A stretch of 64,000 nucleotides of DNA, taken from Podospora anserina. Its lineage: Eukaryota. Below the pieces are notes generated by a model. That model saw nothing but the letters and a program-made list of their open reading frames with translations. It was not told the DNA's origin and did no database searches. Where the stretch lies: NCBI GenBank assembly GCA_017654855.1, contig CM030332.1, positions 5,084,001 to 5,148,000 of the forward strand, given 5' to 3'. Below, one piece after another: positions 24,590 through 26,858 of the stretch. Both the position numbers and the translations under genes were made by a program. The first letter of the stretch is position 1, and each line of letters opens with the position of its first letter.

Positions 24590-25095
24590 ATGGGCAAGGT
24601 CAACTGGTGGCTATGGACCAAAATGCTTGTGGCGTAAGCTATTACTTACCTTCGTAAAAGTAGAAGACGACTGACAAGCTTTAATAGCGGAGGGGGTGTT
24701 ATTTGGGGTGGTCCAGCTCTTGTTAGATATCTTCAACCGACAGACGAAGAGCTCTTCCAGAAGTACAACCCGGAGCTTCAAAAGCGCAGCTTGGAGAGGA
24801 GGTATGAACGTGAGAAGGAGTTTGACGACTTTGTGGTCAAGCTGAAGGAGCAGGCGAAATCCGATAAGCCGAGTAAGCAATGGCTCATTTCTCCGTGTGC
24901 AGGTAGAAAGCTCATATGGTGTGTTCTGTAGTCTGGATTCTTCAAGCGGAGGAAGAGAAGGCCAGTGCCACCAACATGGCTAGACAGCAGAAGCTCGCTG
25001 AAAGTTTGAGACTTGCCGAGGAAGTCAAGGCAAGAAGAGAGGCCATGAGAAAAGAGGCAGGACTGCCAGTGGATTCGGGCAAGCAAGGCAAGTAA
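24590..25095 (+). CDS. CBP4: Cytochrome b / complex III assembly factor Cbp4 (3 exons; absent from ORF track)
   Basis: Spliced: [53 protein letters not shown]...[15 protein letters not shown]...*; GTAAGC donors. Confidence 0.85.
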
Positions 25096-25764
25096 AACAC
25101 ACGCAACAAGCTCACCTCAGCTGTGGCCAAAAGGATGGTCCTTGTATAGTACTTGTATATGTATAGAAAGGGTATTGCATGGAGAGGCGTCTGGGCAGTT
25201 AGTTTTCTGGTATCTCACATTCGGCGCAAATTATTACATTGACTCGCGGGTATTGGCTATTCGTAGTATTACATACACAGCTCTTCTCATGAATTTTGAA
25301 ATGTCTGCCAGTGGCTGGTGATCGTGTCTCATCATCCGAACTTGCTCTTGCAACGCTTCGGCTCGGTCAGCGGGTGGTGAGGGTCAGGTCAATAAGCTCA
25401 GAAGTGGGGTAAAAGTTATTGCGGGAGCGAAAAATTCGGGCAGGGCCTGGCGCACACAATTTCTCCAACCACCGACGCCGCTACGAGGATAGAGACTTTG
25501 CGAGCTTGTCACAATACCCCCGGAGATTCCACGGACCCGAAAATCATCGATTGAAAGAGTACGTTCTCCTGGCTGATTTTCGAGTGGAAAATCGCCCAGA
25601 ATGGCGGTGCTAGAGGACTGTCAGGGTGCATCTCTGCAGCTTTTGTGTGCCGCCCAACCCCAAAACCCTTGCCCAGACTGACTGGATCAATTATAGCTCG
25701 ACATCACCGAGTCTCTTCTGACCATCTCTCGTTTTCTCCACCACCACTTTTCTCGATAGACAAC

Positions 25765-26458
25765 ATGGCGGATGTTCAGGAACGCCTCAAGAAGCTCGGT
25801 GCTTCCGCTCGTATCGGTATGTTGGATTGTCCCTCCGTCCCTCCCTCATTGTCAAAATGAGTTGTCACCCCGCACTTGGACCGATCGGCTAACCCACCTT
25901 TCCTTGACAGGGTATGTTTAGATGCAAATTCTTCCATTCTGTCGACGACAACAACAACGATGACGAACTCGATTCTGACATGTATCTGTGACGAATAGTG
26001 GCAAGGGTACTCCCCGGAGAAAGGTCAAGCGTGCGCCTGCCCGCTCCGCCGGTGATGACAAGAAGCTCCAGGCTTCCCTCAAGAAGCTCAATGTCCAGCC
26101 CATCCAGGCCATTGAGGAGGTGAACATGTTCAAGAGCGACGGCAACGTCATCCACTTCGCCGCTCCCAAGGGTTCGTCACTCCGATACCAGATAATGGGA
26201 AGGGATATGAGGTACTAACTGGCAATAGTTCATGCCGCCGTCCCCGCTAACACCTTCGCCATCTACGGTAACGGTGAGGACAAGGAGCTGACTGAGCTCG
26301 TTCCCGGGATCCTTAACCAGCTCGGCCCCGACTCTCTCGCCTCCCTCCGCAAGCTCGCCGAGAGCTACCAGAACCTGCAGAAGGGCGAGAAGGCTGACGA
26401 GGAGGATGATATCCCCGACCTCGTTGCTGGCGAGAACTTCGAGAACAAGGTCGAGTAA
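25765..26458 (+). CDS. EGD1: Nascent polypeptide-associated complex beta subunit (BTF3/Egd1)
   Basis: [28 protein letters not shown]...DDKKLQ...[30 protein letters not shown]...[13 protein letters not shown]; exons 25765-25816, 25911, 25999-26171, 26229-26458. Confidence 0.96.
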
Positions 26459-26858
26459 GATGTTGTCGATACCAAAATCTTAAAACCTTACTACGAAATT
26501 CTGGTCATCCTGCCTTGTCCCCACCCCAGGTTTATGATGAGGAATAGGGAAGTGATTTTGCGCTTGCGATAATGGATGGCGGCGTCTACGGTTCTTCGTT
26601 GCATTCAGGCCCCAAACTCAAAGAAAGTTTCGGCCAAGGGAGGGATAAAATCAAAGAAATGGACATTTGACGGTCCCCCCAAACACTCGAGTTCCAATAC
26701 GGCAGAAACAATGGGACTGTGTAAAGCAATAAGGTGAAGTGATGGTGGTACCGTGTTTAATAGTATGCCATGGAGTAGCTCACTTAGCTAGACTGGGACA
26801 CGCAATAGTATCTCGCCTGAAGTTGACGAACTGGGACTCTGCGTAAGTTCTCTTAAGA

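Follow-up and report, generated by a model that had tools for sequence, protein, structure and literature searches.

A one-nucleotide exon very probably lies between two complete introns in the NAC-beta gene of Podospora anserina, and the same layout recurs in loci resembling those of other filamentous ascomycetes

The window analyzed here, that is the whole stretch of 64,000 nucleotides, carries on its forward strand a gene which, judging from its sequence, is that of NAC-beta (EGD1/BTF3), the beta subunit of the ribosome-associated NAC chaperone, of a Sordariales-like fungus. The translation of exon 3 matched the NAC domain in Pfam (PF01849, E 1.1e-15). The same domain was present in all of the best 120 of the 1063 relatives of the exon-3 peptide, and these best 120 were nearly all NAC-beta proteins of Sordariomycetes, the nearest among them being Chaetomiaceae models (98%). 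As in other members of the NAC-beta family, the NAC domain is directly preceded by an N-terminal basic RRK motif. We take this conserved N-terminal motif of NAC-beta to contact the ribosome and to have a role in ribosome binding.

All features of the gene are on the + strand. The first one is an intron of 138 nt in the 5′UTR (25559-25696; GTACGT...ACTGAC...TATAG). Three transcript contigs (X1, X5, X12) stop matching the window at 25697, and the intron was recognized because their loose ends match 25529-25558, which corresponds to a jump from 25558 to 25697. The following exon (25697-25816) contains the rest of the 5′UTR and the first coding part, and presented no differences in the three contigs. 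Its start codon ATG at 25765 opens 17 residues and the first G of a split glycine codon, the exon ending with ...CGT ATC G at 25816. Then comes intron 1 (25817-25910, 94 nt, phase 1), with a GTATGT donor, a GGCTAAC branch motif whose branch A at 25892 is 18 nt ahead of the acceptor, and an ACAG acceptor. It is followed by a single G at 25911, and immediately by intron 2 (25912-25998, 87 nt, phase 2), with a GTATGT donor, a TTCTGAC branch motif (branch A at 25978, 20 nt ahead of the acceptor) and an AATAG acceptor. Exon 3 (25999-26171), supported by the PF01849 match and by the transcript contigs, opens with T GGC AAG GGT ACT CCC from 25999, i.e., the third base of the glycine codon and then GKGTPRRK..., the start of the NAC domain. 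The glycine codon GGT of the RIGGKGT motif is thus spread over three exons (G25816 + G25911 + T25999), G25911 being its middle base. Intron 3 (26172-26228, 57 nt, phase 1) has GT..AG ends, and the three transcript contigs present a joint from 26170 to 26228 (GT..AG with the cut at +1). The last coding exon (26229-26460) ends with the stop codon TAA at 26458-26460, and the 3′UTR runs further. For 25817-25998, the coordinates, splice motifs and branch motifs given in a preliminary description of this DNA hold to the base in the window sequence.

Five splice models were built by script from the window coordinates and then translated. The only model with an open frame, of 153 amino acids and with the RIGGKGT junction, was the one retaining G25911, and the other four reached stops. 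Removal of 25817-25998 as a single intron shifted the frame before a stop was met, and removal of intron 1 alone gave ..RIGYV followed by a stop. When intron 2 alone or nothing was removed, translation met the TGA at 25858-25860. These results bear out the preliminary description, according to which G25911 is needed to keep the frame, a single intron would frameshift the gene, and reading through intron 1 leads to an in-frame TGA ending at 25860. The chance level of the site was estimated from shuffled versions of the inner part of the 182-nt stretch, the composite site being defined as a branch motif followed after 6-35 nt by AG-G-GTRNG. This composite site arose in 0.08% of the 200,000 shuffles, and the bare AGGGT in 5.5% of them. 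Also, the entire window of 64 kb contains the composite site a single time on its + strand.

Eighteen sequencing runs, guessed to be RNA though none is recorded as such, contain 68% of the sampled words of the window, which is the share expected of a spliced transcript. Contigs of three of these candidate-RNA runs, from three studies (X1, X5, X12), and of one DNA run (X19) were compared with the window. Each of X1, X5 and X12 gave one contig, covering 25697-25816, 25998-26170 and 26228 onward and otherwise free of differences; as these contigs are spliced, they derive from RNA. Their first joint leads from 25816 to 25998 and skips 181 nt, with two bases of slack and no letters between. The equivalent placements of this skip read GT..TA, TA..AG or AT..GT, which are all non-canonical, and none of them reads GT..AG. 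Since 181 and not 182 nt are skipped, the mature mRNA contains an extra G (..ATC GGT GGC..), in line with the cDNA sequence that the preliminary description had predicted. This mRNA, one base longer than a single GT..AG intron allows, is beyond the reach of any such intron. In the genome, G25911 stands between AG and GT (ACAG-G-GTATGT), with a complete intron on each side. The mRNA would be identical whether the retained base was G25817 (the first of intron 1), G25911 or G25998 (the last of intron 2), and these three bases are all invariant in orthologs, each for its own reasons, so that natural variation cannot tell them apart.

Metagenome contigs were scanned with the exon-3 peptide, which yielded 54 loci, and in 49 of them the DNA preceding the GKGT codons was read. 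The twin-intron layout of the window was present in 23 loci (L001, L002, L004-L017, L020-L023, L025, L026, L048), and a single phase-1 intron (..G/GT..AG/GN GGN) in 9 (L027-L035). Two genomic loci had no intron in the codon (L018, L019), and two fungal contigs were fully spliced with the codon intact (L003, L024). The rest of the read set was composed of 10 distant forms without intron at this site (L036-L043, L046, L054) and 3 further distant forms (L045, L047, L053); the 5 loci outside the read set were partial matches (L044, L049-L052). Upstream of L047:326 and L053:343, which belong to distant eukaryotes, an intron lies a few codons further on (..GGT GGT AAA G/GTAAGT), outside the glycine codon that is split in fungi.

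In each of the 23 twin-intron loci, exon 1 ends with ..R(I/V/T) and a G. It is followed by two introns, between which a single G is enclosed by the AG of the first and the GT of the second. After the AG that closes the second intron, the downstream exon opens with the last base of the glycine codon, which varies between T, C and A ahead of GGN AAR GG. The only internal letters that are invariant across the 24 twin-intron sequences (23 loci and the window) are AG-G-GTA. A YTRAY motif was present 11-27 nt ahead of the acceptor in nearly every intron of these loci. Their introns ranged between 60 and 487 nt (intron 1) and between 63 and 233 nt (intron 2), and the sequences were otherwise unlike one another. 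The layout is therefore kept in orthologs while the intron sequence drifts, as is to be found around a genuine one-nucleotide exon. AGGGT, and even AGGT, was absent from all 9 single-intron loci. Also, the 9 Agaricomycete-like loci have their single intron exactly where intron 1 lies in the window and in the 23 twin-intron loci. As L013 and L014 do not differ in the displayed part, and L020/L021 and L025/L026 are closely similar, the 23 loci correspond to about 20 independent lineages.

The loci were labeled by their best blastx hits against named proteins over 130-230 residues, which is not a tree, and the lineages of the hits were checked in taxonomy. On this basis, the best hits of the twin-intron loci belonged to Sordariomycetes, Dothideomycetes, Lecanoromycetes, Leotiomycetes, Eurotiomycetes and Pezizomycetes. 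For example, L001 and L002 were closest to Sordariales (96%), L008, L009 and L023 to Pleosporales (93-99%), L025 and L026 to Dothideomycetes such as Zalaria and Zymoseptoria (about 86%), and L011 to a Lecanoromycetidae model (95%). L013 and L022 matched Helotiales models (75-89%), L010 and L048 a Chaetothyriales model (Lithohypha, 84-86%), and L017 Pezizomycetes (Pyronema, Sphaerosporella, 90-93%). Most of the single-intron loci had their best hits in Agaricomycetes (Amanita, Russula and others), mostly at 94-100% over an exon peptide of 57-58 residues, and L027 and L029 matched Agaricomycete models at 60-69%. These labels indicate that the twin-intron layout spans most Pezizomycotina classes, one early-branching class included. 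A check of AG-G-GT in orthologs across Sordariomycetes had been proposed in the preliminary description; the site recurs in the 23 loci and goes beyond this class, to six Pezizomycotina-like classes.

Some loci and models depart from this layout. In L018:830 and L019:140, intron 3 is present and the split glycine codon is free of introns, the N-terminus reading MDQ(N/A)(K/R)LA(K/R)LQAQAAAVRIG. Their best hits reached only 69-81% (Dactylellina, Orbiliomycetes), and these loci may either have lost both introns or never have gained them. L003:1-262, which is Hypocreales-like, has a spliced coding sequence (glycine codon intact, intron 3 gone) and an intron-like stretch left in the 5′UTR, and is probably a partly processed transcript. 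L018 and L019 apparently also present an intron-like stretch just 5′ of the ATG, as L003 does. Among the protein models, those of Xylariales/Amphisphaeriales type (P0110, P0113, P0115, P0116 and P0111; ..KKKFGGAAPSRTG/GKGT) all had a correct junction, P0111 being a contig-level ORF with a straight read-through (..GTG/GKGT). This suggests that the group may lack the twin introns or have an intron elsewhere.

We consider that G25911 is very probably a one-nucleotide exon between two complete U2-type introns, each of which is spliced out by a reaction of its own. The mature mRNA, taken alone, is also compatible with one non-canonical intron of 181 nt (GT..TA, TA..AG or AT..GT) removed in a single step, the internal AG-G-GT being then a coincidence, and the joint itself reads as a skip of 181 nt with GT..TA ends. 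However, no placement of this intron has canonical ends, and there is no U12-type ATATCC donor at 25819. Such an intron also gives no reason why 23 of 23 loci, with introns that are unlike in all other respects, conserve the inner acceptor, the G, the donor and the second branch motif, nor why the inner site is missing in 9 of 9 single-intron loci, and the composite site has a chance of 0.08% per locus. We thus find this explanation very unlikely. By consensus, U12-type introns have AT-AC or GT-AG ends, a ATATCCTT-type donor and a TCCTTAAC-type branch. A U12-type intron was considered and rejected: the AT..GT placement starts with ATGTTGGA, and the U12 donor and branch are both absent. An assembly or sequencing error, behind which the genome would really have one canonical intron, has in its favor the general possibility of such errors alone, which the preliminary description had raised as an indel that would make a single intron in-frame. 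Contig X19, which is DNA from another run, aligns colinearly to the window with zero indels, and five DNA-like runs, which may include the window's own source, contain all the sampled window words; a sequencing indel is therefore not the cause. The same layout in 23 other loci also goes against an error, and its probability appears negligible to us.

Two further explanations concern the nature and the role of the layout. In a stwintron, one intron is inserted into a splice signal of the other, which makes the order of removal obligatory. The two introns do abut here, and complex introns of this sort occur in the same fungi, according to the accessible portion of the article by the authors who described stwintrons (Fekete et al., 2017; PMC5587772). 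Nevertheless, both introns of NAC-beta are complete, neither depends on the excision of its neighbor to obtain or restore a donor, branch or acceptor, and the base between them stays in the mRNA. Moreover, a [D1,2] stwintron needs G[GT..AG]T and a [D1,2]/[A2,3] stwintron needs one shared G, whereas the center here is AG-G-GT, which makes a stwintron extremely unlikely. The one-nucleotide exon could also be kept as a regulatory device, skipping from 25816 to 25999 giving a frameshifted, NMD-targeted mRNA that would tune the output of NAC-beta. The skipped form would indeed be frameshifted and have an early stop, and the long retention of such an awkward layout invites a functional explanation. 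On the other hand, no skipped transcript was present in the contigs of the three runs, contigs being prone to drop rare forms. Also, L018 and L019 manage without introns in the codon, and the Agaricomycete-like orthologs with one. The need for base-exact intron loss would explain the retention equally well, and we regard a regulatory switch as unlikely.

If G25911 is a one-nucleotide exon, it gives the splicing machinery no exon to grip at both sides. Short fungal introns are recognized across the intron, and an exon of one nucleotide need not be recognized as an exon. Both NAC-beta introns would be recognized in this way, by intron definition. The donor of an intron is read over about -3 to +6. 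The footprint of the intron 2 donor extends over the AG of intron 1, whose branch site is less than 20 nt off, so that two spliceosomes could hardly act simultaneously and the reactions would be consecutive. Two spliceosomes would then assemble in turn, probably 5′ to 3′ during transcription. Either order of removal is chemically possible and would result in the same mRNA. Neither a lariat nor a splicing intermediate was present among the assembled transcript contigs, a kind of data in which intermediates and rare forms do not show. The 5′ to 3′ order is a guess, which we hold as somewhat probable and favor because intron 1 is transcribed first. P0145 is a contig-level ORF from a NAC-beta of Dothideomycete type. 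It passes from exon 1 straight into the G and an unspliced, in-frame intron 2 of 87 nt, and goes on into intron 3. This sequence may be either an intermediate lacking only intron 1, which would fit the 5′ to 3′ order if it is RNA, or a genome that lost intron 1 and kept the phase-2 intron.

As for its origin, the layout could have arisen through the gain of a phase-2 intron, one base 3′ of an older phase-1 intron which is still alone in the Agaricomycete-like orthologs. Its persistence would be a frozen accident, since the glycine codon of a conserved motif tolerates no intron loss that is not exact to the base. An origin by intron duplication, with or without the flanking G, was rejected by reasoning, as the layout is then unreachable without a frameshift. 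The one-nucleotide exon of NAC-beta is probably old. We propose only tentatively that it is ancient, dating from the Pezizomycotina ancestor or before, that it was formed by a phase-2 intron landing beside the phase-1 intron shared with mushrooms, and that it has been faithfully spliced across most filamentous ascomycetes. If this was true, it would be the most widespread and probably the oldest known one-nucleotide exon. Two introns one base apart, with relatives that have the first one only, also bear on the apparent sliding of introns by one base, and the same scenario would provide a second route to it, independent of stwintrons. Losing intron 2 exactly to the base would bring back the phase-1 state, and losing intron 1 would leave a phase-2 intron, of which P0145 may be an example. 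The exon would then also be a ready model, in Neurospora or Aspergillus, of a spliceosome facing an exon without room for exon contacts.

Recursive splicing offers a first comparison. Its ratchet points are zero-length exons (AG-GT) in long Drosophila introns. There as in NAC-beta, the acceptor is directly followed by a donor, and removal of the upstream part leaves this donor beside the upstream exon. However, no base of a ratchet point remains in the mRNA, and the introns concerned are very long, while in NAC-beta one base is kept and the introns are short. By analogy, these arrangements may be seen as a series -1, 0, +1, formed by introns sharing one G, ratchet points with their zero-length exon, and NAC-beta with its one retained base. 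Stwintrons, for which a [D1,2]/[A2,3] route to an intron shift of one nucleotide has been described (Fekete et al., 2017; PMC5587772), resemble the present case, as far as the available text of that article goes, in that U2 introns of Pezizomycotina are in direct contact and spliced sequentially, and in that loss of either one at the DNA level yields canonical introns one base apart. They differ in that the internal intron splits a signal of the external one and nothing between the two survives, whereas each NAC-beta intron is autonomous and a base remains between them in the mRNA.

One-nucleotide exons have been reported before. In Fusarium, the P450 genes CYP621A present one in 20 orthologs, according to the portion of the report that is accessible (Nelson and Syed, 2026; PMC12940212). 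It has the same AG-G-GT, and its G is the middle base of a glycine codon that belongs to a conserved motif (PKG in CYP621A, RIGGKGT in NAC-beta). As in NAC-beta, this fungal exon was inferred from a phase mismatch and an alignment of orthologs, and confirmed by transcripts. However, the accessible text describes this exon as confined to the 20 Fusarium orthologs and rarely expressed, whereas NAC-beta is a housekeeping gene whose twin-intron loci resemble six Pezizomycotina classes. The claim that CYP621A is the first fungal case conflicts, in the text available for both papers, with the long-read annotation of Coprinopsis cinerea, where the 1-nt class contains 13 exons in 13 genes (PMC12230235; PMC12940212). 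From this count, one-nucleotide exons recur in fungal genes and break gene models if they are missed, at least in the material given in that excerpt (PMC12230235). It is a catalog from a basidiomycete, however, and the Agaricomycete-like NAC-beta loci have a single intron at the site. In Arabidopsis, the single-nucleotide exon A333 of APC11 was proven by substitution and deletion constructs (Guo and Liu, 2015; PMC4674806). As partially available, this article describes a constitutive one-nucleotide exon flanked by two GT..AG introns, essential for the frame and mis-annotated publicly, as in NAC-beta. In contrast, APC11 is a plant gene, its exon is an A, and the evidence is mutagenesis, the NAC-beta case being known from sequence and transcript contigs. 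The rice orthologs of APC11 are intron-free, so that its one-nucleotide exon does not appear deeply conserved from the same partial text (PMC4674806).

We found no description of a one-nucleotide exon in NAC-beta in the literature searched, whose coverage is incomplete for subscription journals and supplements. Thus, it is apparently an unreported member of a kind already known, and it is unusual in its likely age, its breadth and the damage it causes to public gene models. A constitutive case, recurring in the transcript assemblies of many fungi and in genetically tractable groups, would lend itself better to experiments on splicing than a rarely expressed P450 gene of Fusarium.

The junction was scored by regular expression in the proteins with an NCBI name, the identifiers being transcribed by hand. 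It was correct in 16 of 84 Sordariomycete-like named models and in 11 of 60 named models of other Pezizomycotina, versus 49 of 51 for Agaricomycetes, which have one intron; P0077, scored as correct, looks like a false positive, and there is at least one such case in these counts. This agrees with the expectation of the preliminary description that standard gene finders would mis-model the junction. Over all the listed proteins of the three sets, named or not, the correct junctions were 42/120, 27/118 and 70/120. By subtraction, 26 and 16 unnamed Pezizomycotina proteins, which are contig-level calls from Logan, JGI and ENA, have an intact ..RIG/GKGT. We took them as unspliced ORF calls on transcript contigs and, if so, the mature junction would be intact in many species.

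The errors of the faulty models were of several types. Eleven NCBI models read ..G-Y-V.., that is, intron 1 was removed and the reading continued into G+GTAYGT. Seven other proteins, of which six were NCBI models and one was a contig-level call, gave ..G-M.., the first donor being read into. The other ones had one odd residue added, a start within intron 2, or a fusion to the upstream CBP4-like gene. About four fifths of the named public Pezizomycotina models in the sample are thus wrong at the conserved N-terminal motif of a universally conserved gene, and the cause of this misannotation is specific and fixable. Since gene finders fail at the one-nucleotide exon, the neighboring CBP4-like and NAC-beta genes are sometimes merged, as in P0004, P0006, P0013, P0025 and P0106, where PF07960 (CBP4) is fused to the NAC domain. 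In the window, the neighboring ORFs upstream of NAC-beta, at about 24907-25095 on the + strand, resemble the CBP4 family.
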